This document shows positions 18,715 to 63,056 of a DNA stretch of 64,000 bases, one piece after another. Within the stretch, counting starts at the first letter, position 1; each line of letters starts with the position of its first letter. Below the pieces are notes generated by a model that saw only the letters and a program-made list of their open reading frames with translations, did no database searches and was not told where the DNA came from. The stretch spans positions 591 through 64,590 of the forward strand of contig DATJSN010000045.1 in the NCBI GenBank assembly GCA_035504095.1. Reading direction: 5' to 3'. The stretch is from Phycisphaerae bacterium. Lineage in GTDB: Bacteria; Planctomycetota; Phycisphaerae; WQYP01. Made by a program: the position numbers and the translations under genes.

Positions 18715-20184
18715 TTATTGAGCGGACAAGTAAGCATAAAATTTTTGAGCGTCCTCATTTCCGAGATGCGCGGCTCTTGCGGTCCAGGCAACCGCCTTGT
18801 TAATGTCTTTATTCACACCATAACCATAATAGTAGCAATAACCGATGTTATACATAGCCTCTGTATTTCCGGCAGCAGCAGCATTTTGAAACCAATACAG
18901 AGCCTGTTTGTAATCTTGGGCCAAGCCACGGCCGGTGGCATACATCAAACCGATGTTGTTCATAGCATTAGGATTTCCACATGTCGCAGCCTTTTGAAAC
19001 CAGTCCATTGCCTGCTGATAATTCTGAGCTGCACCTTCGCCGTATTCGTAATCAACACCGATATTGAACATAGCCACAGGTTCACCTAAAGCTGCGGCCT
19101 TTTGATACCATACAAAAGCTTGTTGGTAATCTTGATGGACGCCATGACCTTGATCATATGCCACACCGATATTGTACATCGCATCAGAATTCCCCAGTGC
19201 CGCAGCCTTTTGATACCATGCAAAAGCTTGCTGATAATTTTGAATTACACCCTCGCCATTGGTGTAAAGAATACCAACGTTATACATGGCTTTAGCATTC
19301 CCTAACGCTGCGGCCTTTTGATACCATGCAAAAGCCTGTTTGTAATCCTTGTGGAGTCCCAACCCATCAAAGAATAAAGAGCCAATTCCATCCATAGCAT
19401 CGGCATTACCAAGTTTTGCGGACTTTTGTAACCAAATCATGGCCTGTCCATAATCCCGCTGTATTCCATCACCACTTTCATAAAGCTCAGCAATGTTTTG
19501 CATTGCCAAGGATGATCCACCATCAGCAGCCTTTTCCCACCAGAAAAGAGCTTGATGGGGATCTTTGGGAACGCCATGCCCCTGTTTATAGAGATTACCA
19601 AGGGCGAACATTGCCAATACGTTGCCTCCATCAGCGGCTTTTTTATACCACTGCATTGCTTGTCTAAAATCCTGCATTACGCCCAAACCCTGATCATAAT
19701 GCTGACCGAGGTTATACATCGCGTCGACAACTCCCGCAGCGGCAGCCGACTGCCACCAATCAATCGCTTTGGAGCGATTTTGAGCGATGCCCAAGCCCTG
19801 GTCATAAAGCTGTCCAATATTAAACATCGCCTCGCCATCGCCGCCGATGGCGGCTTTCTGGAACCAAATCATTGCTTGCGAATAATCCTGAGCTACGCCA
19901 TAGCCATTCTTGTAAAGATCACCAATGTTGTTCATGGCATCAAAATTACCTGCTGCCGCCGCCTTTTGAAAATACATCATTGCCTGTTGGTAATTTTTCT
20001 GTTCGAAAGCTTGCCCACCAATCTGGTAATCGGCATCATCGGGTGCCGTCGATTCAGTGGTTGTCGGCACAGCCGCAGCATTTGTTGCGGCTGCGCTGAA
20101 AAAGTAGTAGGTGGAAAGTAGAAAATAGAGTATTATCATTAATGCAAACAATTTAAATAGAATTTGGAAACGTTTCATCTGCAT
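18715..20184 (-). CDS. Sel1-like (TPR-family) repeat protein with signal peptide. The start is trimmed to the ATG at 20184 (MQMKRFQILFKLF...) to avoid overlap with trpS.
   Basis: More than 12 tandem ~36-aa Sel1 units (AMYNLGxxYxxGxGVxQDYxQAxxWYQKAAxxGN). Confidence 0.85.
   Translation of the reverse strand: MQMKRFQILFKLFALMIILYFLLSTYYFFSAAATNAAAVPTTTESTAPDDADYQIGGQAFEQKNYQQAMMYFQKAAAAGNFDAMNNIGDLYKNGYGVAQDYSQAMIWFQKAAIGGDGEAMFNIGQLYDQGLGIAQNRSKAIDWWQSAAAAGVVDAMYNLGQHYDQGLGVMQDFRQAMQWYKKAADGGNVLAMFALGNLYKQGHGVPKDPHQALFWWEKAADGGSSLAMQNIAELYESGDGIQRDYGQAMIWLQKSAKLGNADAMDGIGSLFFDGLGLHKDYKQAFAWYQKAAALGNAKAMYNVGILYTNGEGVIQNYQQAFAWYQKAAALGNSDAMYNIGVAYDQGHGVHQDYQQAFVWYQKAAALGEPVAMFNIGVDYEYGEGAAQNYQQAMDWFQKAATCGNPNAMNNIGLMYATGRGLAQDYKQALYWFQNAAAAGNTEAMYNIGYCYYYGYGVNKDINKAVAWTARAAHLGNEDAQKFYAYLSAQ
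18760..20000 (-). repeat. Intragenic tandem ~108 bp DNA repeats encoding the Sel1 units
   Basis: Periodic recurrence of TGGTATCAAAAGGCTGCGGCA-like and CCATGCAAAAGC-like blocks through the gene. Confidence 0.7.
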
Positions 20185-20282
20185 ATTCAAACTCAATATT
20201 ATAGATTCCAACTTTGTTACATCACGCCTGATCCATGCCATGATATCTGCTGAATCCCTGAATTCCGTTGTTGTAAACCGCT

Positions 20283-21392
20283 TCAATCGGAGAAAATGAT
20301 TTTGCGCGGAACAAAATTCTGTTTCATCGCCTTTTTGGCTGCCAACAATGTTTCTTCCGCGATGGCGTTGGCTCTGGCCGTTCCTTCGCACAGCACCTTT
20401 AATACATGCCCCTGGTCTTTTTCGTATTCTTCACGCCGTTTGCGCATTGGCTCAATCAAAGCTATAAGCACTTCGACAAGTTTTTTCTTACAGTCCACGT
20501 CTCCGATGCCTCCGGCGCGATATTTTTCTTCCGCCTGATGTACCCATTCTTTATCCGGATTGAACGTTTCATGAAATATCCAAAGCGGGTTATTTTCCAC
20601 CGTACCCGGATCGGTCGCGCGCTTTCGATTCGGATCGGTATATATCGCCATCACTTTTTTCCGCACCGTATCCGAATTGTCGCTTAGATAGATGGCGTTG
20701 TTGAGCGATTTACTCATTTTTAATAATTGCCCCTCGGCATTTGGCGGGCCAATGCCCACCAGCCGTTTTACCCGGCCCAGCAGCGGTTCAATAATTGGAA
20801 ATAATCCCCCTGCCGCTACATTATCCTCATCCGGCGTTTGCGGATTTACGCCGCAATACATCTGGTTGAAACGCCTCGCCACTTCGCGTGTTAATTCCAG
20901 ATGGGCAAGCTGATCTTCGCCCACCGGTACAAGTTTCGGACGAAACGCCAGAATATCCGCGATCTGCCCCACCGGATAAAGCAGGAATCCGAAACTGTAA
21001 TTATCGCCCAGGCCTTTATCGCGAATTTCATCCTTGAGTGTAGGATTGCGCATCAGACGGCCGAAGGGGACCAACATGCTCAGGAAAAATGTCAGTTCCG
21101 CAATCGCCGGCACTTCTGACTGGACAAATATGGTACTTCGTTTTGGATCGATGCCCGCAGCAAGATAGTCCATGGTAATTTCGATGACGTTCTGCCGGAT
21201 TTGGCCCGGTTGATCCGCCTGCGTGGTGAAAGCATGTGCATTGGCGATGATAAAGTAACACTCGTACTGGTCCTGCAATTTGACCCGATTTTCCAGTGAA
21301 CCGACCCAGTGTCCCAGATGCAGTTTTCCCGTAGGCGTATCGCCCGTTAGGATTCTGGGTCGGATATTTTGACTCGATGGCCGCTGATCCAT
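20283..21392 (-). CDS. trpS: Tryptophan--tRNA ligase (long form)
   Basis: Class I motifs: HIGH-like TGDTPTGKLHLGHW and KMSKS (KMSKSLNNAIYL). Confidence 0.9.
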   Translation of the reverse strand: MDQRPSSQNIRPRILTGDTPTGKLHLGHWVGSLENRVKLQDQYECYFIIANAHAFTTQADQPGQIRQNVIEITMDYLAAGIDPKRSTIFVQSEVPAIAELTFFLSMLVPFGRLMRNPTLKDEIRDKGLGDNYSFGFLLYPVGQIADILAFRPKLVPVGEDQLAHLELTREVARRFNQMYCGVNPQTPDEDNVAAGGLFPIIEPLLGRVKRLVGIGPPNAEGQLLKMSKSLNNAIYLSDNSDTVRKKVMAIYTDPNRKRATDPGTVENNPLWIFHETFNPDKEWVHQAEEKYRAGGIGDVDCKKKLVEVLIALIEPMRKRREEYEKDQGHVLKVLCEGTARANAIAEETLLAAKKAMKQNFVPRKIIFSD

Positions 21393-21534: not shown

Positions 21535-21593
21535 GTAAGAGCCTCTAACCAAATTTGATGCGGATTCAGGCTCATTTTGGTTAGATGCTCTCA
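21535..21593. repeat. Mini inverted-repeat hairpin element sharing its arms with the terminal inverted repeats of the 59477-59762 element
   Basis: GTAAGAGCCTCTAACCAAAT ...(20 nt)... ATTTTGGTTAGATGCTCT: about 17 bp arms with one mismatch, lying between trpS (5' leader on the minus strand) and ptsI. Confidence 0.6.
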
Positions 21594-23460: not shown

Positions 23461-23509
23461 CGAAACGCTTTTTTTGCCAGAGACTCTCTATTTCGTTTAA
23501 GATTGCTCT

Positions 23510-23788
23510 AGAATCTATCTCAAACCATAGCGAGAGCCGCGTTTGGCATCAAAGTGGTCAGATGCAAGGAAGAGCGACGAGGTTATATTCGAAAGATAAT
23601 ATGGTGAGGAGTGTTGACGCCGCAGATGGCCGCTTGGAGGCCAAACCCTTCGGGACGAGGCTGCCTGACCCCGAATCCGGCGTCGCACCTTCTCGCTGTA
23701 TTGTATTTTAATACTCGCTCGTCGATGCTCCTTGGCTCGGAGCCAGGCAGCCGACGTCGCGGCCTCGATATGTTTTGAGATAGATTCT
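23510..23788. repeat. Copy A of a ~280 bp structured inverted-repeat element (candidate ncRNA or MITE-like), bounded by 15 bp terminal inverted repeats AGAATCTATCTCAAA / TTTGAGATAGATTCT.
   Basis: The core aligns with 59500-59740 in shared blocks: GAGCCGCGTT(T/G)GGC, CAGATGCAAGG, CGCCGCAGATGG, CCCTTCGGGACG, GGCGTCGC, CTCGCTGTATTGTATT(T/C)TAATAC, TCGTCGA(T/A)GCTCCTTG, CAGC(C)GTCGCGGCC. A sub-hairpin shows compensatory changes (ATATT-cgaaagat-AATAT versus GTATC-cgaaggat-GATAC). It ends 2 nt before the ATG at 23790. Confidence 0.7.
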
Positions 23789-23789
23789 T

Positions 23790-24314
23790 ATGCCCAAAGA
23801 AACACTGTCTCCCCGAATACGGCACATTTTGCTTTTGAGTACAATGATTGTCCTCGGGTTGCTGGCTTTAGTATTTGCCGACTTGGTAATGCACTGGCGC
23901 GCGAAAGTTGACCGGATAGCATTTACGCCGCCTAGTCACGACTTTGTTCCCACCCAATCCAGTGTACTACTACTTAACGGCCGGTCACGATTAATCGACC
24001 GCTTCAGTATTTCATTAAATGGCGGCTTCTCTAATGATCCGCAGTCCTTAATTAATGAACTTTTTGGCCAGGTTCTTTCCGATGTATCGAGCGACCTTAA
24101 CAAGACTGGATCCCCGGAAGTTTCCTTATCGAATAACGGTCCATTTTATACTTATAAAGCTTTTTGGCCCAATAATCAGGGCTTCCTTTTCATGAACTTT
24201 TTGGTCAGTTCTGGTGAGCTTGAGGCCATCAGTTATTTTGGAATGGGCGAGAGTTTTCCACAGGACGATCAGTATTTTCAGGCGCTGTCTGTTAAAATAT
24301 TCTCCGGAGACTAA
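23790..24314 (+). CDS. Hypothetical membrane protein
   Basis: 174 aa with an N-terminal TM (ILLLSTMIVLGLLALVFADLVM). The start codon abuts the right terminal inverted repeat of element A. Confidence 0.6.
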   Translation: MPKETLSPRIRHILLLSTMIVLGLLALVFADLVMHWRAKVDRIAFTPPSHDFVPTQSSVLLLNGRSRLIDRFSISLNGGFSNDPQSLINELFGQVLSDVSSDLNKTGSPEVSLSNNGPFYTYKAFWPNNQGFLFMNFLVSSGELEAISYFGMGESFPQDDQYFQALSVKIFSGD

Positions 24315-24334: not shown

Positions 24335-26020
24335 TTGTCCCTGGTGGAAATGAGGAAAATAAATTTGTTGGTTCATAACCGTATGAAAATCTCCGCTTTT
24401 ATTCTAACTTTTGTTGTCATCATTGCGTCGGCGTTCAACGATTCTGTAATGCTTTCTGCCCAGAATCAATCGTCGCTTCAAAGTCAACAGAATCCAGCCA
24501 GTCAGCCTGCTTTTGCATCACCTGATCAGGCCGGTGGACTTCCTCAGGCACTTTTGGCCGGTCCGCCAACTCTTGGTCCTATCTGGCGCGATGAGGAAGA
24601 TGGCTTTCAGATTCGTCCGCCAGACGGCTGCATTGGTTACTATAAATCTCTGGCGGATTTGGCGCATTTCGAAAATCCCACACTCAAGTGGGACATCATC
24701 ATTCACCTTAGCAAACTCGCCCAACCCGCTGACGTTGATCCGCTGATGCAGGAAGTACTTGCAGAAGTTCGTCATCAGTTTCGGAACGTTGTTGTTTTGC
24801 AACAGAATCGACTGTATGTGTCGGGCCGGCGCGCCGGTTTGTTGGTGTTGCGGCTTGAATCCATAATCAATAAAACCCCCGTCGATTTAATATGGCAGCA
24901 GGTTTTTATCCAGGAAAACCCCACCACTTATTTCGTTTTAACATTTTCCTGTCCGCCGGATCAGGAAGCGGACGCGCGCGACATATTCACCCGCATGATC
25001 GGCAGTTTTCAGTTATTGGATGTTAAAAAAATGACTCAGGAGCGTGTGGCCGCGATACAAACAGGTCGCACATGGCTTCCCAAACAAACCGCGGAAAGTC
25101 TGCTCCCCAGCATGGATGCCCAGCCGCAATTATTTCGCATTGTTATCCATGGTCAGGATGCCGGTTATGTTCAATTGTCCGACTACCCCGGCGAAAAGGA
25201 TGGCTTCAAAGGCATCTTTTGCGATTTGAATAGTCGCACTTTTTTACCCGACGGTTCCATGCTATTTTCAGAATCCAACTGGTTTTGGGCTTTTGCCCAA
25301 CAACCGGGCAAAACGGGCGCCGCCGCGAATTATTCTTCCTGGATTAAAATTCTTCAGCATTTAACTCCTATCAATAATCCACGGATCGTAGCGCTTCGGC
25401 AGGAACGCCAGGTTGAAGTTGACCCGCTGACCAGGACTTTTAAAACCATTCATATAGACATTCCCTATCCAAATATGATTGTGCACTGGCAAACTGAATT
25501 GGGCATACAGCAGTCGGGGTATTTTCCTTTACTGGACAAAAACGGCAACGTCACCGATGCCTATCAATTTCAATGTCGTATTCACGTCGAGCGCGACTAC
25601 GATCTGGGCTGGCTGGAAATGCATCCCACTGCCTCCGAATCGAATGGCCCTTATGATTATACCTTTGGTTCGGACATGGCCCCCGCATTGCCCCCAGCCC
25701 TTGAATTTCTTTGGCCCCGATTGGTAAATTTAAACACACCTTCAGAAATGGCGTTTCTGGTTTTTGACTCCGACCGAAGCGTCCCCAATTTGCGCGTCCT
25801 GAAAGTTCTTGGTCCTGAAAAAATTACCATTGGTTCTCAGCAGGTTCAGGCGTATCATTTAAGCGAAGAACTTGATCCTTCTGTCTGTGATTTATGGGTG
25901 GATGCAAGCGGACATCTGTTAAAATATCAAGCAGCTGATGACAGTGTCTGGCTCCCCACAACACAGGATCAAATGAGCGCTCTTTGGGCCAGACAGCTGG
26001 CGGAGATAAACGAAAAATGA
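24335..26020 (+). CDS. Hypothetical secreted protein. The likely start is the ATG at 24383 (MKISAFILTF...).
   Basis: 561 aa with a signal peptide, a Q/S-rich linker and no recognisable domains. Confidence 0.7.
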   Translation: MSLVEMRKINLLVHNRMKISAFILTFVVIIASAFNDSVMLSAQNQSSLQSQQNPASQPAFASPDQAGGLPQALLAGPPTLGPIWRDEEDGFQIRPPDGCIGYYKSLADLAHFENPTLKWDIIIHLSKLAQPADVDPLMQEVLAEVRHQFRNVVVLQQNRLYVSGRRAGLLVLRLESIINKTPVDLIWQQVFIQENPTTYFVLTFSCPPDQEADARDIFTRMIGSFQLLDVKKMTQERVAAIQTGRTWLPKQTAESLLPSMDAQPQLFRIVIHGQDAGYVQLSDYPGEKDGFKGIFCDLNSRTFLPDGSMLFSESNWFWAFAQQPGKTGAAANYSSWIKILQHLTPINNPRIVALRQERQVEVDPLTRTFKTIHIDIPYPNMIVHWQTELGIQQSGYFPLLDKNGNVTDAYQFQCRIHVERDYDLGWLEMHPTASESNGPYDYTFGSDMAPALPPALEFLWPRLVNLNTPSEMAFLVFDSDRSVPNLRVLKVLGPEKITIGSQQVQAYHLSEELDPSVCDLWVDASGHLLKYQAADDSVWLPTTQDQMSALWARQLAEINEK

Positions 26021-26054: not shown

Positions 26055-26819
26055 ATGAAAAATTTTCTTAAAACGATTGTATGGCTGGTCGTAGTTGCAA
26101 CACTTGTTGCCGGCGGTGTCTCCCTCGTTCAGGTGTACGTGACCCGTCATTCCCTCCAGGTACAGCTTGAAAAACAACGCAAAGAATTTGAAGACATCAT
26201 TGACCGGCTTACCGGTCGTACGCGCCGCGCTCAACTCGTGGTGGACAGTCAGGTCGTCGATGGCTCCAGTCAGGTGGAAAGCACCACTCTGCTCTGGCAG
26301 GAATATACCGTCGGCCCGCAGGGTGAGCCGGAGGCCATGCCCATACAAAAATTCACTATCCCTGGCGATACGCCGCATATCGATGCATTGACCATTAAAT
26401 TCCAGGATAGTTACGTGGAAGAGGGCGACCTGCTGAAAGGAAAAACCCTGGTTTTTTTCCGCCGCATCTATGGCGATTCGCAAGCCCCTGATCAGGGCGC
26501 ATCGCTGCTTGGTCCGGACAATGTCCCCTTGGTCCTGTTGGGTAATGACGGTCAACCGCCGAATCATTTTCTAACAGAAATGTGGAACAACATCTGGCAA
26601 TTGATTGATAATCAGAAATTTGCTGAAAGCCAAGGCGTTGATGTTGCTGAGGGATCCGTAGCATACAAACAAGTTGTACCGGGTAAGCTGTATTCGATTT
26701 TTGCTCCCAACGACGGCAGTGGATTGGATTTTGTGGAGGAGATCGGGGAATCGGATCTGGTACAGGCGATGCTCAAGCAGGCCGACGAATCAGAATCCCA
26801 GACGCCATCGACTCCATAA
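26055..26819 (+). CDS. Hypothetical membrane-anchored protein
   Basis: 254 aa with an N-terminal TM (TIVWLVVVATLVAGGVSLV) and an acidic C-terminus. The antisense ORF 26040..26567 is rejected. Confidence 0.65.
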   Translation: MKNFLKTIVWLVVVATLVAGGVSLVQVYVTRHSLQVQLEKQRKEFEDIIDRLTGRTRRAQLVVDSQVVDGSSQVESTTLLWQEYTVGPQGEPEAMPIQKFTIPGDTPHIDALTIKFQDSYVEEGDLLKGKTLVFFRRIYGDSQAPDQGASLLGPDNVPLVLLGNDGQPPNHFLTEMWNNIWQLIDNQKFAESQGVDVAEGSVAYKQVVPGKLYSIFAPNDGSGLDFVEEIGESDLVQAMLKQADESESQTPSTP

Positions 26820-40463: not shown

Positions 40464-40491
40464 TCCTTCCCGATTAATTTTGTTAGAGGCT

Positions 40492-41535
40492 CTAGCCGAC
40501 AGAATTCGTGACTTGATTCAGCATAGTTACCCAATGACCGGCCCAATGGGCAATCGAATAATTTTCTATCACATGCCGACGACCGGCGTTTCCATACGAT
40601 GAACGAAGACTTTCATCTTCGGTGAGCCGTCGAATGGCCAGACGCCACTCTTCTGGACCTGTTGCCCAATAACCATTAACACCATCAACAACGATTTGAC
40701 GATTCACACCCACGGGGGTCGCAATTACCGGAAGACCGGCAGCCATGTACTGCAATAATTTAGCGCCGCATTTAGCGGCTTGGTAGGGATTATTTTCCAG
40801 CGGCATAATTCCCACGTCAATGTGCATGGAGATCGTGCGCTCCAGTGTTGGTGACCAATTTAAATAGCGCACCCAACGTGAGTCCTTCATGAATGAGGCG
40901 GGCCGATCTGAAATGACCACCAGTTCGAATTTCAATTCCTGCTGCAATTCGTGAAAAACTTTCGCCATGGGTGCCAGGGTGTGCTCTATCGACATTGAAC
41001 TTCCAAGCCAGCCGATGCGCAATGGCCCATTTAATCGATGGTTTTCACGCACACTGTAACAATCGGTATCAACGGCTGTAGGAATGATGACGTGCTTGCG
41101 AGTAACGCTCGAAATGGCATCCGCAATGGATTGATTTCCACAGATGATAACATCGGCCCGACGACATAGTGCTTCAAAACCAGTGCGATCGCCACCGAGA
41201 TAAATTGCATCATCGACGTCCAATATAAGTGGATTGGGTGCATTCAAAAATGGGCGCTTGCTTACAGGCAACTCACGACTAATCACAATTGGTTGATGTG
41301 GACCAAGTTTATGAAGCGCGGACGAAGCTTGCAGAGTACGCCATCCCCGCCGTAAACGATGTCCGGTGCGGCCGAACCACTTTGTCTTTGGCAAACTCGA
41401 CTGACCTATTCCGGAATCAAAATGATGTATTCGTAGTCGCCAGCCGCTTTTCTCCAGGTGCGGAGCATAAGCCGCAATCCTCATCCTGGACGAAGGATGG
41501 TTGACGCCCAGAGAAAACGCCAGAACATTTTTCAC
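40492..41535 (-). CDS. Glycosyltransferase family 4 (GT-B, GT1 clan)
   Basis: C-terminal E-x7-E-like region, with AAKCGAKLLQYMAAGLPVIATPVG typical of GT4. Confidence 0.85.
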   Translation of the reverse strand: MKNVLAFSLGVNHPSSRMRIAAYAPHLEKSGWRLRIHHFDSGIGQSSLPKTKWFGRTGHRLRRGWRTLQASSALHKLGPHQPIVISRELPVSKRPFLNAPNPLILDVDDAIYLGGDRTGFEALCRRADVIICGNQSIADAISSVTRKHVIIPTAVDTDCYSVRENHRLNGPLRIGWLGSSMSIEHTLAPMAKVFHELQQELKFELVVISDRPASFMKDSRWVRYLNWSPTLERTISMHIDVGIMPLENNPYQAAKCGAKLLQYMAAGLPVIATPVGVNRQIVVDGVNGYWATGPEEWRLAIRRLTEDESLRSSYGNAGRRHVIENYSIAHWAGHWVTMLNQVTNSVG

Positions 41536-54610: not shown

Positions 54611-54774
54611 GTATATTCCTTAAACCATTAGCCCACCTATATAACGCCGAATAGGCAATCTTATTATTGTACTTTTAGCCTTTCTACTTTTAAATTATTA
54701 CTCCAATCCGGTCCCTTGGACTCGCCCAGGCCTATTCGTATAATCTGCTCTGGTTTTTTTGTTAGAGGTTCTAG

Positions 54775-55179
54775 ATGAAATTTATTGTCGAAGAAGTTAA
54801 GCCTGGATTCATCACACTCAACGCTCCGGGCACAAATTATCGCAACACATTCAAATGGGCCGGCACACAGATGCCCGAGGTCGGCAAAAAAATATTTGGA
54901 ACTATTTACGCCGTGGCCCGAAAAATTGAAGAAGTCAGCGACGGCGGCAACTATGTGGAGCCCCTTTTTGGCCTGCCGCGTCGCATGCAGGGACTGGTAT
55001 TGTCTCAGGACACGCTGAAAAACGAGTTATTGGTATTGGTTGGTTATCAGGTCCGCGTAACTGTTCCTGCAACCCAGAATGCTGGTGATTTTGCCGTCGG
55101 TTCGCGCGTCGGCTGGGATAACGCCGAACAACCGTCATTTATGGCTGAAGCATCCGACGCAATAACCACCGGCGCATAA
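54775..55179 (+). CDS. Hypothetical protein
   Basis: 134 aa ORF. The TTGTTAGAGGTTCTAG motif lies immediately 5' of its ATG. Confidence 0.5.
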   Translation: MKFIVEEVKPGFITLNAPGTNYRNTFKWAGTQMPEVGKKIFGTIYAVARKIEEVSDGGNYVEPLFGLPRRMQGLVLSQDTLKNELLVLVGYQVRVTVPATQNAGDFAVGSRVGWDNAEQPSFMAEASDAITTGA

Positions 55180-55229: not shown

Positions 55230-55301
55230 GCGGGCGTAACTCAATGGCAGAGTGCCAGCCTTCCAAGCTGGCTGTTGTGGGTTCGAGTCCCATCGCCCGC
55301 T
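55230..55301 (+). tRNA. tRNA-Gly (anticodon UCC)
   Basis: Manual fold: acceptor GCGGGCG/CGCCCGC, D-arm ACTC-AATGGCA-GAGT, anticodon stem CCAGC/GCTGG with loop CTTCCAA, T-arm GTGGG-TTCGAGT-CCCAT, discriminator T; 72 nt. Confidence 0.9.
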
Positions 55302-57126: not shown

Positions 57127-59475
57127 TCACGCAGCCACAAACGAAACCGCCCATTGCACTTCCCGACTTACCGGAGATTCAATTGTCACCCGCGTCCAGA
57201 AGCCGGCTTCCGCGTGCGAAATTTTTACGCCCGCTGCCGTATCCGCCGATGAAACAACGACTGAAGCAACTGGCGCGCTGGCCTGACCGTTTTTCGTTAA
57301 AACTACTAACTCGGGCGCCGGTTGTGAAATGCGCAATTCATAAGCCGATCCGCCTACTACTTTGCTGGTTCCGCTGAGCGTGTTAGTTTCCGGATTCCAT
57401 TGTTCACTCACCAGGTCGACCGCCCCCTGTGTGACGTGACGGGACGTGCTGATCAGTTGCGGATTCTTTGTCCGTGGCCTAATCGCCATTACCAGACACG
57501 TTCGCCCCGGCAGATCAAATGTCCAGCTATTTAAACCGCTGATCGGTTTATTGCCCCAGAAATCAAAAGCGTCATAGACTGCGTTAGGGTCCAACCCCGC
57601 CGCTGCTGGATCAACTTGTGCCGTCCAGTGTCCGCTGCTCCAGTTGAACAAACCCAGAACGTAATGGACCTCATCGTCGACTTTATAAGTTAACATCCAA
57701 ATCCGCGCCGGATCATTATCAAACAGGTCCACTGGGCGGACCGTTTTGAATTGATGCGAAGGCATCATGCAGCGCAGTGCGTCGATGCGTTCCTGCGTGT
57801 ATTCCAGCATCCAGTCACTGGTAGTGTGATGGGCGCTAAGCAACGTCACCCATGAGCCATAACACAAAAACTCGTTCATCGGAACCGAAAGTCGGGCGTA
57901 AATCGGATCAGGATCGTTCCACCATACGCGCCCGTTAAGAAAATACAGATGCGAACCGGCGTGTGTTCCATGCTGAATATTGGCCCATTTGGATGTGTTG
58001 TCCGGCCCGATGCGCATCGCGTCGACCAACCCCAGCTCCATGCCCAGCGAACGCTCATTTTGAGGCAAACAACACCCGAGGATAAATGTATCTGGTCCGG
58101 CGGCCTCACGAATTGTCTTAAGTCCCAGCCGTGCCGCCTGCATATTGGACATGGTTTTGTCCTTGAATACCGCGTCGCCGAAGTTGTCCTCGTAATAAGC
58201 TTGATTCGCAATTTGATGAGAATAATCCTGCAGACATGCCAACCCTGTATATTGGCCGTCGATTTTCAGATAACCATACCCCCACTTATTCATCGCCTGA
58301 CTGATAAACCCTGCGACATAATCCCGTGCTTTACTGTACGTCATGTCCAGGCATGTGCCGCCCCAATAAGTGTCATATACCGAACCATCTTCCCGGCGAA
58401 CCACCAGGTCCAGCTTGTCTGCGAATATTGGATCCTGATAATCAATCGCGAACGGCAGCATCCATATTCCCGGCAGCAGTCCCAGCGCCGCGATCTTATC
58501 CGCCACCGGTTTCATGCCCGCCGCATACGGCCCTTTGGGATTCACATGATAAAAATCCATCGCCGGCCAGCCGTTGCGCTTCTGGCCGTTTTGCCAGTGA
58601 TCGTCAATTTGCACAAAACTGAACCCAAACGGGGCAAAATTTTTGGCGGCATATTCAGCGATTTGCTGCAGATGTTCCGGATCGGAAGCGGCGCCATGTT
58701 TATCCGAATACCACGTGCAATATCCCGGAGCATGTGGCTTAAGTTTGACCCCGTTAATCAAGGCAAACTGATCTGCCCAGGTTTCCAGGCCATCGCGTAC
58801 ATCGTCAAACCAGCCGATCGCCCACCAGTCCCCGCCGAATTCATCCAATGTAGGCGGAATCGCACTGCCGTAATCGTTACGCAATTTTAGTACAATTTTG
58901 CCGCCTTCCACTCTTGGAAATATCACGCCGCTGGCGGCGTCTATTCTGATCAGACCCGCCACTACGCCGCTTCGTGAGACTGGATCGGCGACTGTTGTTA
59001 CCACGTGTTGGCCCGGATTGTTCGCCGGATCATAAAGTCCGCCTGCCCCTAGTCCTTTGGTCGACGCCTCAAGACTTAATTTCGCCTCAAATACGCTCAC
59101 CCGATGTCCCGGCATGATCACGTCGGAGTTGCGCGGATCGCGGCGAATAAAAACAAACGGAACATCCTGGGCAATAACAATCCAGTTTTCTCCCGGCGAA
59201 ATTTTCAACACTTTTCCCGGACCAAATGGCGAATCCGCGCCCAGATCAACGATGCTGCACGACCCTGCTCCGGGCTGCATAAACAACCCCGATGCGAATG
59301 GACTTAAATCGGCAGCCAATGTCAGCATGCCCGTGGTCGTATCCATGCCGGCAAATACTTTGCCGTTGCTGATGATGCTCACCGGTGAATCAGTCTGTGC
59401 GTAAAGTTTGGCAGGAATGCTCGCCGCCCCCGCCGATACCAGCAAGGTTCCTACAAATTCGCGACGTGTGAACAT
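57127..59475 (-). CDS. Tat-secreted putative glycoside hydrolase (TIM-barrel, alpha-galactosidase-like). The start is the ATG at 59475 (MFTRREFVGTLLVSAGAAS); the track ORF extends to 59646 through repeat element B.
   Basis: Twin-arginine signal RREFV. The internal WGYGYLKIDGQ resembles the catalytic KxD region of clan GH-D enzymes. The family assignment is tentative. Confidence 0.7.
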   Translation of the reverse strand: MFTRREFVGTLLVSAGAASIPAKLYAQTDSPVSIISNGKVFAGMDTTTGMLTLAADLSPFASGLFMQPGAGSCSIVDLGADSPFGPGKVLKISPGENWIVIAQDVPFVFIRRDPRNSDVIMPGHRVSVFEAKLSLEASTKGLGAGGLYDPANNPGQHVVTTVADPVSRSGVVAGLIRIDAASGVIFPRVEGGKIVLKLRNDYGSAIPPTLDEFGGDWWAIGWFDDVRDGLETWADQFALINGVKLKPHAPGYCTWYSDKHGAASDPEHLQQIAEYAAKNFAPFGFSFVQIDDHWQNGQKRNGWPAMDFYHVNPKGPYAAGMKPVADKIAALGLLPGIWMLPFAIDYQDPIFADKLDLVVRREDGSVYDTYWGGTCLDMTYSKARDYVAGFISQAMNKWGYGYLKIDGQYTGLACLQDYSHQIANQAYYEDNFGDAVFKDKTMSNMQAARLGLKTIREAAGPDTFILGCCLPQNERSLGMELGLVDAMRIGPDNTSKWANIQHGTHAGSHLYFLNGRVWWNDPDPIYARLSVPMNEFLCYGSWVTLLSAHHTTSDWMLEYTQERIDALRCMMPSHQFKTVRPVDLFDNDPARIWMLTYKVDDEVHYVLGLFNWSSGHWTAQVDPAAAGLDPNAVYDAFDFWGNKPISGLNSWTFDLPGRTCLVMAIRPRTKNPQLISTSRHVTQGAVDLVSEQWNPETNTLSGTSKVVGGSAYELRISQPAPELVVLTKNGQASAPVASVVVSSADTAAGVKISHAEAGFWTRVTIESPVSREVQWAVSFVAA

Positions 59476-59476
59476 A

Positions 59477-59762
59477 GTAAGAGCCTCTAACAACATAAGC
59501 CGGGAGCCGCGTTGGGCCGCAAATGGCCCAGATGCAAGGCGGAGGCCCGAAGCCGTATCCGAAGGATGATACAACGAGGGCCGACAACGCCGCAGATGGG
59601 CCATTTGCGACCCAACCCTTCGGGACGCGGTGCCTTTCGGCCCCATACGGCGTCGCTTCTCCTCGCTGTATTGTATTCTAATACTTGCATCGTCGAAGCT
59701 CCTTGTCTGGGACCCAAATGCCCAGCGTCGCGGCCCCGCCTTATGTTGTTAAAGGCTCTAAC
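59477..59762. repeat. Copy B of the ~280 bp structured inverted-repeat element, with 22-23 bp terminal inverted repeats GTAAGAGCCTCTAACAACATAAG / CTTATGTTGTTAAAGGCTCTAAC.
   Basis: The core aligns with copy A (23525-23770). Its terminal stems have a different sequence from copy A but are self-complementary in both copies. It begins 1 nt from the ATG (59475) of the minus-strand hydrolase gene. Confidence 0.7.
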
Positions 59763-59853
59763 CCTCCTCGTGGACCGCCATTTAAATAAAACTTACCATT
59801 CATCATCTGCCGCTGCCAGTGATTTAATGGCGTTATTCCAGTAACATAACGTC

Positions 59854-60465
59854 ATGACCACCGGGCTATTACAAAATCAAACCTGGGACGTCGGCCGCAC
59901 TGCCGGTCTATGTTCTGCTTGCTCAATGACCCTTACACCAGGCACGACGTGTTGGGCTGCTTTGGTGGAATTACCTAAATCCGGCGGCAGTGCTAATACC
60001 GCCGACGCCAACAAGGATAAACCCATCAGCCCCTGGCAACGCCTCGACTTCTGCCAGGCCTGCTGGTCTGCCGGCAAACGCCCCGCGCCGCCATTGGATA
60101 TGTTTTCATTTTGGAAAACCATCACGCCCGAGCCGGAGAAAAAACGCCGGATTTTTGTTGACGATTCCGTACTCATGGATCTGTTTAATCGTCTCGTCGA
60201 TCGCACCGATATGACGGACATCCGTTTTCGTTTTGTTCTGGCGCTCCTGCTGATGCGCAAAAAATTACTTAAATACGAGGGAATTGAAACACTGCCGACC
60301 GATATGGCCGAACGCTTTAAAGAATTAACTCCTCAGCCGGAACTCTGGAAAATGTTTCCCCGCCAGAGCGATTTTTCTGTTATGGTTGTCAATCCTCACC
60401 TGACTCCTGAGCAGATCAGTCAGGTATCTGAGCAGCTTTCTACAATCCTTGCCGAAGAAGTTTAA
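59854..60465 (+). CDS. Hypothetical protein with N-terminal CxxC...CxxC zinc-ribbon-like motif
   Basis: 203 aa; CSACSM...CQACW. Its last about 22 codons are duplicated at 61849-61935. Confidence 0.6.
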   Translation: MTTGLLQNQTWDVGRTAGLCSACSMTLTPGTTCWAALVELPKSGGSANTADANKDKPISPWQRLDFCQACWSAGKRPAPPLDMFSFWKTITPEPEKKRRIFVDDSVLMDLFNRLVDRTDMTDIRFRFVLALLLMRKKLLKYEGIETLPTDMAERFKELTPQPELWKMFPRQSDFSVMVVNPHLTPEQISQVSEQLSTILAEEV

Positions 60466-62620: not shown

Positions 62621-63056
62621 GTTCTACAATGCTCGGGCCAAAAGCCTAAGCTACTAATGCATTCTTCTCAATCATTTAAAAATCTAGCTCAGACTCCCCA
62701 GCATGAGCATGTGACCGTAAGATTCACAGTTAATAAACGGTGGGTCCGCATGCTCACTAAACGCATTCGTCGACAATGCTGCATAAAGCAAAAATCTGTT
62801 TGACAAAACAAAAATATTAGCTATTATGATAATTGAAATATACCTATCCAAAAGGGCGATGGAGTTCGCCCTAACCGCCCCATGTCCATGGGGCTGATAA
62901 CTCCTATCGGGCTTTACCCAATGGAAATATGTCAGCGCATTCGTGCTGGATTTCCTGCCCGTAGGGTTTTCAGTCGTAGCATTCCGGATAAGCAACTCGC
63001 GGATATTCTTCTCCGCGGATTCGCTTCTCTTAGGATGCTGAACATGGCGTGGCAAC

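Follow-up and report, generated by a model that had tools for sequence, protein, structure and literature searches.

A 64,000-nt stretch of the metagenome-assembled genome of an uncultured Phycisphaerae bacterium (positions 591–64,590 of contig DATJSN010000045.1, assembly GCA_035504095.1; hereafter, the window) carries two copies, A and B, of a repeat of ∼280 nt. Both repeats are non-autonomous DNA transposons, or MITEs (miniature inverted-repeat transposable elements), of an undescribed high-copy family found in a clade of uncultured Phycisphaerae. We found that this element sits directly 5' of the start codons of ordinary genes far above chance, and a single strand of it is predicted to form a four-way junction that the paired termini close. 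Taken as a whole, the explanation that we consider probable is that of a structured MITE family carried as a 5' leader near ATG codons.

Two copies of the element and their flanking genes

Two related stretches of the window (23531–23718 and 59501–59688) are 71% identical. Direct reading and alignment show that each belongs to a unit of ∼280 nt closed by a long inverted repeat. A scan of metagenomes with the pattern CCGCAGATGG-N12-22-CCCTTCGGGAC returned 34 loci, mostly from samples Ga0335074 and Ga0209773, and 27 full-length copies (275–292 nt, mode 280) were defined from them; alignment of 27 family members set the boundaries of copies A and B. Two main subfamilies match copies A and B, with 85–96% identity inside a subfamily and ∼72% across, and several additional end types exist. 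Loci outside the window are denoted below by L numbers. The features of the two window copies are as follows (SD, Shine–Dalgarno sequence).

23508–23510: left target-site duplication of copy A, CTA, 1 mismatch to TTA (the empty site in L043 has a single TTA)
23510–23788, plus strand: copy A, full-length element of 279 nt with A-type termini AGAATCTATCTCAAA... (covariance model, 297.9 bits)
23510–23540, plus strand: copy A, left terminal inverted repeat, which forms the 5' strand of the closing stem P1 (helix 1)
23758–23788, plus strand: copy A, right terminal inverted repeat, which forms the 3' strand of P1 (helix 1) and abuts the start codon
23788–23790: right target-site duplication of copy A, TTA, its final A being also the first base of the ATG at 23790
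23790–24314, plus strand: 174-amino-acid orphan gene starting 1 nt past copy A (L043 orthologue, 5828/5837–6388)
57127–59475, minus strand: Tat-signal glycoside hydrolase (Melibiase-like), ATG 4 nt from copy B, MFTRREFV N-terminus kept in L007 and L008
59478–59480: left target-site duplication of copy B, TAA
59480–59759, plus strand: copy B, full-length element of 280 nt with B-type termini AGAGCCTCTAACAA... (covariance model, 308.2 bits)
59480–59510, plus strand: copy B, left terminal inverted repeat, one strand of P1, read on the minus strand as ...GUUAGAGGCUCU with the SD-like AGAGG
59729–59759, plus strand: right terminal inverted repeat of copy B
59759–59761: right target-site duplication of copy B, TAA, identical to the left one

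At copy A, the right end (23788) is followed by a single T (23789) and the ATG at 23790, in agreement with a preliminary description of this DNA. That description had placed copy B at 59477–59762. The copy is indeed there, but these limits are 3 nt too wide on each side and take in the TAA duplications. It was correct in placing the hydrolase start at 59475 on the strand opposite to copy B, in having both flanking genes point outward from the element, and in listing co-directional open reading frames (ORFs) beyond copy A (23790–24314, 24335–26020 and 26055–26819). The gene 59854–60465, which it called a zinc-ribbon gene, exists as an ORF but has no zinc-ribbon match in Pfam. The neighbouring ORFs encode PtsI, hypothetical proteins, the hydrolase and an acyltransferase.

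The hydrolase start codon (59475–59473, minus strand) lies 4 nt from the end of copy B and 2 nt from the duplicated TAA. The minus strand reads GTTAGAGGCTCT-TACT-ATG here, with AGAGG (complement of 59484–59488) 8 nt 5' of the ATG. Upstream, the hydrolase frame runs on without a stop across the left half of copy B as far as an ATG at position 59646 (839-amino-acid ORF; 59646–59476, minus strand). Orthologues show that the true start is 59475 and not 59646. The family can mislead start-codon and ORF calling, as in the 839-amino-acid ORF that runs from 59646 into the hydrolase.

Target duplications and empty sites

The terminal inverted repeats are 27–31 bp long and of the GAG.../...CTC type. With the element taken as GAG...CTC, an exact 3-bp direct repeat flanks 10 of the 27 copies (TTA in six, TAA in three, ATA in one) versus ∼0.7 expected, and several more copies are 1 mismatch short of an exact duplication. 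The outermost 9 bases on the left and on the right (AGAGCCTCT versus AGAGGCTCT) differ from each other as inverted repeats do, and they therefore belong to the element and not to the target duplication.

Homologues of the 174-amino-acid protein were not found outside its own species, so we reached the empty site of copy A via PtsI. In L043, PtsI is 93% identical to that of the window, and the gap between ptsI and the orthologous gene is only 69 nt. The empty site reads TTTCGTTTAACATGAAGT-TTA-TGGCCAAAG in L043, and the window at copy A reads TTTCGTTTAAGATTGCT-CTA-(element)-TTA-TGCCCAAAG. Hence, the TTA that copy A entered shares its A with the first position of the start codon. We also note a solo A-type end, TGAGATAGATTCT, at L043 5761–5773, 3 nt past the ptsI stop codon.

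For copy B, the element is wholly missing from the relative L007 (hydrolase 75% identical), where the spacer measures 99 nt and GAGGAG stands 8 nt 5' of the same ATG. A second relative, L008 (hydrolase 81% identical), retains at 620–646 the terminal 11 nt of the element, TTAGAGGCTCT, 4 nt before the homologous ATG. L008 is probably an 11-nt remnant left by an almost exact deletion between GTTAGAG microrepeats, in which the SD-like AGAGG was kept. We do not regard L008 as a site that was never occupied, with a palindrome as its target, since this end sequence recurs at numerous unrelated loci and so is part of the element. Comparison with element-free relatives had been proposed in the preliminary description; at L043 for copy A and L007 for copy B the full element is missing and the start codons are unchanged. 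In both, the native sequence upstream of the gene matches what now flanks the far end of the element in the window.

Terminal inverted repeats, target duplication, small non-coding size and dispersed copies with presence/absence polymorphism together characterize the element as a MITE. A conserved ORF was sought across the copies, and no reading frame is consistently open. Members of the IS5 family (IS1031/IS427-type) and the eukaryotic Tourist/PIF-Harbinger MITEs make a 3-bp TNA/TWA duplication and have ends starting GAG/GG. The 3-bp duplication of the present family is of the same TNA/TWA type, and by analogy the family is probably IS5/Harbinger-like.

A covarying four-way junction

RNAalifold applied to the 27 full copies gave a consensus fold of four parts, namely the closing stem P1, in which the terminal repeats make 27 pairs, arm 1, a central mini-hairpin (CCCUUCGGG, 2 pairs, at the exact centre of the element) and arm 2. 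In this model, a single strand of the element is a four-way junction closed by its paired termini. In copy B, the parts inside P1 are located as follows.

59511–59615, plus strand: arm 1 hairpin, ∼105 nt, with the conserved CAGAUGC/GCAGAUG internal motif (helices 2–5)
59616–59624, plus strand: central mini-hairpin CCCTTCGGG
59625–59728, plus strand: arm 2 hairpin, which shares homology with arm 1 in reverse complement (helices 7–11, half-element alignment)

Standard pairs occupy 96.1% of cells in the named structure versus 34–42% in slid controls, and 47 of its 79 pairs have changed on both sides versus 11–19 in slid controls; none of 500 shuffles reached the observed values for pairing or double changes. 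Helix 1 (27 pairs) is 96% paired, and its ends are conserved within subfamilies across unrelated loci. Copies A and B differ by changes on both sides of 24 pairs, so that the repeats and stems are different and the places of pairing are the same. Amid variable stems, several blocks in unpaired stretches and internal loops are conserved (GAGCCGCGTT, CAGATGCAAGG, GGCGTCGC, GCTCCTTGG and CGTCGCGGCC). The invariance of two further blocks is due solely to the search pattern, of which they were a required part.

The left half of the element aligns to the reverse complement of the right half with a score of 77 (versus –5 ± 9 for shuffled sequences), and the similarity between the halves reaches well past the terminal repeats. 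The reverse strand of every copy also scores ∼130 bits with the covariance model. Taken together, these alignments and scores make the element a pseudo-palindrome of two homologous arms of ∼100 nt each.

Copies are not randomly oriented with respect to the adjacent gene. The gene lies at the left (arm-1) end in seven of seven copies with a B-type core and at the right (arm-2) end in five of six with an A-type core (Fisher test, P = 0.005), and this non-random choice of side is seen even though the two ends of the element are nearly identical in sequence. Of 13 single copies, 11 have the slightly better fold on the presumptive mRNA-sense strand, and this strand is also favoured in each subfamily overall. 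Orientation and strand folding are together suggestive of selection acting on the transcript.

The fold could instead be kept by a need at the DNA level, such as a hairpin or cruciform in transposition or replication that intrastrand repair maintains, and not by an RNA function. Such a need would be in line with the pseudo-palindromic nature of the element in DNA, with the fit of both strands to the covariance model, and with a G-U/A-C asymmetry that is not decisive. However, cut-and-paste elements that make target duplications require their ends alone, the sequences of the internal loops are conserved where the stems vary, and the orientation bias of the subfamilies agrees with the better-folding sense strand. 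We consider a purely DNA-level origin of the fold unlikely.

Element ends are concentrated at start codons

Thirteen of the 27 full copies have, at one end, an outward-directed ORF of at least 80 codons whose ATG is 0–6 nt away, and in ∼40% of family members one end lies 0–7 nt from the ATG of a long ORF. We counted the distances from all 80 recognisable ends to the ATG of an ATG-initiated ORF of at least 100 codons.

0–7 nt: 16 of 80 ends
8–15 nt: 1 of 80 ends
16–30 nt: 2 of 80 ends
31–60 nt: 2 of 80 ends
61–100 nt: 10 of 80 ends
101–200 nt: 12 of 80 ends

At the same loci, the 0–7 nt class holds 2.3% of random positions, 3.3% of non-coding T(A/T)A sites and 2.1–2.9% of AT-rich T(A/T)A sites (binomial test, P-value ∼6e–9 to 1e–11 across nulls). 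Normalised to the null, the density per nucleotide at 0–7 nt is ∼6-fold that of the 61–200 nt class. The preliminary description had offered two readings for the position of the window copies, either an insertion preference for sites immediately 5' of start codons or a cis-regulatory leader. The bias towards the ATG holds family-wide (16 of 80 ends versus ∼3%), and it would fit either cause.

The abutted genes are ordinary ones. All 10 that were scanned with Pfam are conserved genes whose ATG is the true N-terminus (response regulator, KpsF-like SIS/CBS, ParA, RibD, RibBA, DJ-1/PfpI, pyruvate kinase, NuoE, RecR and HIT protein), and their domains begin at residues 1–13, mostly at profile positions 1–3. 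Because such housekeeping genes presumably must be expressed, the insert should be compatible with transcription and translation. In copy B (GAGGAGG) and in L021 and L039 (AGGAGG, GAGGA), an SD lies 2–4 nt outside the far end, so here the element was inserted between SD and ATG. SD-like 4-mers were present in 5 of 13 far flanks versus 3 of 28 other flanks (P = 0.08). Solo-end remnants also abut start codons, at position 54772 of the window, in L008, at L018 2343 and at L020 6072.

The peak might reflect nothing more than a preference of the transposase for the DNA of translation or transcription start sites, for instance melted or bent DNA, with no role of the element in expression. The peak at 0–7 nt is indeed very sharp, and 6 of 17 start-adjacent cases, copy A among them, have a target duplication that shares bases with the ATG (T-N-A-TG); in four cases, removal of the element would leave a TAnnnT hexamer 5–7 nt before the ATG, as in leaderless genes. 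Yet start-adjacent and other sites have no motif in common beyond T(T/A)A, and both SD-led and possibly leaderless genes are hit. The gene side is biased despite near-identical ends, and the ParA and pyruvate kinase genes tolerate the insert, which is thus at least compatible with expression. Site preference as the sole cause is therefore not what we would expect to be true, although its chance is not negligible. Sharpness of the peak and overlap of the duplication with the ATG favour targeting; orientation bias and the solo ends that have been kept favour selection.

A neutral MITE would require no such cause, as closeness to ATGs would then follow from random insertion into intergenic DNA that is short or AT-rich, and from later purifying selection. 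The T(T/A)A target is AT-rich, and so are the flanks (59% AT versus 47% overall). Ends are depleted at 8–60 nt, as protected promoters would bring about, and ∼60% of copies are elsewhere, some of them at stop codons. However, non-coding T(A/T)A sites, AT-rich ones included, predict 2–3% where 20% is observed (P ∼1e–8 to 1e–11). The intergenic spacers at start-adjacent sites were ∼35–500 nt long before insertion, so short intergenic regions do not account for the bias, and insertion was nevertheless always at the extreme gene-proximal end. Neither the ∼6-fold density at 0–7 nt nor the orientation bias is expected under neutrality. We regard neutrality as improbable.

A proposed structured 5' leader

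In copy B, positions –5 to –284 from the hydrolase ATG are all element sequence. The preliminary description had the element end supply the translation-initiation region. For copy B this is plausible, with AGAGG present 8 nt before the ATG; copy A has only GAGA and no convincing SD. Two sequences next to the window copies bear on how a leader would be made.

23474–23503, plus strand: sigma-70-like promoter match TTGCCA-18-TAAGAT (a consensus match only), which would put the whole element in the transcript
59763–59769, minus strand: native hydrolase SD, GAGGAGG, now at the base of P1 and displaced away from the ATG by 280 nt (in L007, GAGGAG is 8 nt 5' of this ATG)

The promoter-like site ends 6 nt upstream of copy A. 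We infer that transcripts of the downstream gene include the element as a structured 5' leader, and that its end may act as a ribosome-binding site. In the mechanism that we propose, the element would be transcribed as the leader of the downstream gene, and the purine-rich SD-like motif of the outward end (AGAGG, ACAGG), 4–9 nt from the ATG, would make this position tolerated or favoured. The distance between purine motif and ATG (4 nt plus 0–5) fits SD spacing for B-, C- and D-type ends, and weakly for A-type ends. In the predicted hydrolase leader, the native GAGGAGG is at the base of P1 and the AUG is 4 nt beyond P1. Initiation might then proceed along either of two routes. P1 might be opened or cut by RNase III, which would free the SD borne by the element, or the closing stem might loop the insert out, so that the native SD would remain near the AUG.

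A number of points weigh against this account. First, ∼60% of copies are away from any start codon, and the SD-like motif of A-type ends is weak. In the predicted hydrolase leader, AGAGG is fully paired within the ∼30-bp P1 stem, which should block initiation unless P1 is processed or melted. The scanner found no sigma-70-like promoter within copy A or B, and carriage of the element into mRNA is presumed. The compensatory changes could stem from DNA hairpin repair or gene conversion and not from RNA function. The differences in folding energy between strands are a few kcal/mol and are confounded with subfamily, and counts of G-U versus A-C did not settle the strand. As to mobility, no transposase or autonomous partner was found among the ORFs checked in ∼360 kb, nor any pair of ends 0.8–2 kb apart, and the IS5/Harbinger assignment, which draws on the target duplication and on the type of ends, is a lead.

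Two candidates were rejected. An outward promoter inside the element has no scanner support; those picked by hand are weak and, for A-type copies, lie at the wrong end. In L009, the ORFs that separate two distant solo ends, considered as a transposase, encode a phage portal and a terminase.

A non-mobile structured cis-regulatory RNA, that is, a riboswitch-like leader evolved in place or spread by gene duplication, would account for covarying stems, conserved loops and location 5' of genes, but it is extremely improbable given the target duplications, the absence of the full element from relatives at both window loci, the nested insertions, the copies at stop codons or distant from genes, the functionally unrelated downstream genes, the occurrence of the gene at either end of the element and the lack of a match in Rfam.

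Comparison with known systems

Among the systems that we compared, none shares the sequence or the size of the family, and none combines a covarying four-way junction with a T(T/A)A target and a start-codon peak at 0–7 nt. Among the closest are the Correia/NEMIS (CREE) elements of Neisseria, which are gene-proximal, co-transcribed MITEs with long terminal inverted repeats; their termini affect expression, and their RNA hairpin is a substrate of RNase III (PMC2649163; PMC3184786). MITE nature, long terminal inverted repeats and closeness to genes are common to both families. However, Correia elements are 100–155 bp long, duplicate TA and contain an IHF site, whereas the Phycisphaerae element is ∼280 bp long, duplicates T(T/A)A, has a four-way junction and peaks 0–7 nt from the ATG. 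There is no sequence similarity between the two, their ends are unrelated, and promoters and RNase III cleavage are Correia features. With its 3-bp duplication, 280-bp length and unrelated ends, the Phycisphaerae family does not belong to Correia.

The bcr1 repeat of the Bacillus cereus group is a mobile intergenic repeat with flanking direct repeats that is transcribed into a cruciform-like RNA with compensatory changes (PMC3184786). It differs in size (∼155 bp), in its 5-bp direct repeats and in phylum, and adjacency to start codons is unreported for it. Neisseria REP2, Borrelia IR repeats and putative mobile promoters are located directly 5' of non-homologous genes and supply signals of the 5' untranslated region and the ribosome-binding site (PMC3184786; PMC3488235). 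REP2 has no terminal inverted repeats and contains the ATG itself; at the Phycisphaerae element, a transposon derivative with inverted repeats and target duplication, the ATG is that of the host gene.

A conserved structured interior, as seen here, is not a known feature of IS5/Harbinger families. In phage T4, genes 38 and 25 have split ribosome-binding sites, in which a stable hairpin between SD and AUG restores a working distance. By analogy, the closing stem would set the native GAGGAGG beside the hydrolase AUG. The T4 case involves a short fixed hairpin, in contrast to a 280-nt mobile element.

Riboswitch-like leaders do not offer a match, as the downstream genes are unrelated, either end of the element can face the gene, numerous copies do not lie 5' of genes and the element is mobile. 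Readings of the repeat as a retron, a 6S-like RNA, a bridge RNA or an omega-RNA were rejected, with no associated protein gene nearby and with terminal repeats and target duplication indicating cut-and-paste; at the window copies in particular, no reverse transcriptase gene is adjacent, as a retron would have. In Rfam, the element has no match at the gathering threshold, and at copy B there are only chance-level matches (E at least 4.8).

Derivatives of the family and other features of the window

The family includes rearranged and shortened forms. The copy at L032 4314–4590, a locus common to L034 and L041, is a chimera in which B-type ends enclose an A-type core, and recombination between subfamilies is suggested by it. 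At the site of this chimera, a 205-nt deletion form is present in L034 and L041. Nested insertions, in which one member lies within arm 1 of another, are found at L024 3054–3335 and L011 1509–1924. A one-armed variant of 186 nt (L043 6388–6573) was inserted exactly at the TAA stop of a 186-amino-acid gene. Short forms and solo ends are also among the derivatives of the family. A prophage-like region with portal and terminase genes (L009 1686–13922) holds one full copy, two short copies and two solo ends. At L016 2335–2650, the 10-mer TAAACTTTTC flanks the element on both sides, beyond the TTA duplication, and another element end begins at 2694, 61 nt downstream.

Scanning species-representative genomes with a 20-mer from the apex of arm 2 yielded chance matches only, with unrelated flanks. 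Two scans of viral contigs gave chance matches or none, and BLAST against plasmids and phages returned nothing relevant. The Logan contig L006 (1–26), which carries the 174-amino-acid gene, ends 26 nt 5' of that gene, inside the right repeat of the element; the family thus breaks short-read assemblies.

Three further pieces of the family are present in the window.

21538–21591, plus strand: 54-nt mini-derivative (left end, 22 nt, right end)
40478–40493, plus strand: solo right-end remnant TTTTGTTAGAGGCTCT
54757–54772, plus strand: solo right-end remnant TTTTGTTAGAGGTTCT, followed by AG and then ATG 54775 of a 134-amino-acid ORF (54775–55179)

The mini-derivative lies 111 nt 5' of the true ptsI start (21703) and is missing at L043. 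The solo end at 54757–54772 is the third case within the window of an end abutting a start codon. Directly 3' of the 134-amino-acid ORF which it precedes there is a tRNA gene (55230–55301, plus strand, 69.2 bits). Elsewhere in the window, a fluoride riboswitch (crcB motif; 62846–62913, plus strand, 56.5 bits) was detected, and CrcB and DUF190 genes are near in the syntenic L007. Positions 18841–19994 contain seven copies of a 108-nt periodic repeat (36-amino-acid Sel1/TPR-like units) within the minus-strand ORF 18715–20391.

Implications for the Phycisphaerae

Beyond the account of a structured MITE family carried as a leader near ATGs, we put forward, tentatively and as a rather doubtful extension, that the selected unit may be the RNA, a mobile four-way-junction 5'-leader module delivered to or retained at start sites, or else that an undescribed kind of transposase targeting may act on the nucleotides before start codons. 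If the RNA-module reading is true, native ribosome-binding sites would be replaced and dozens of unrelated housekeeping genes would come under one post-transcriptional control, which would run via processing of the stem by RNase III or via a factor that binds the conserved loops. Should the bias at start codons reflect targeting, it would point to a transposase that recognises start-site DNA at near-nucleotide precision. Should it reflect function, the element would be a natural portable translation-initiation module, and a transposon would be rewiring many genes at their 5' ends in one stroke, conserved housekeeping genes among them, within a phylum that has received little study.

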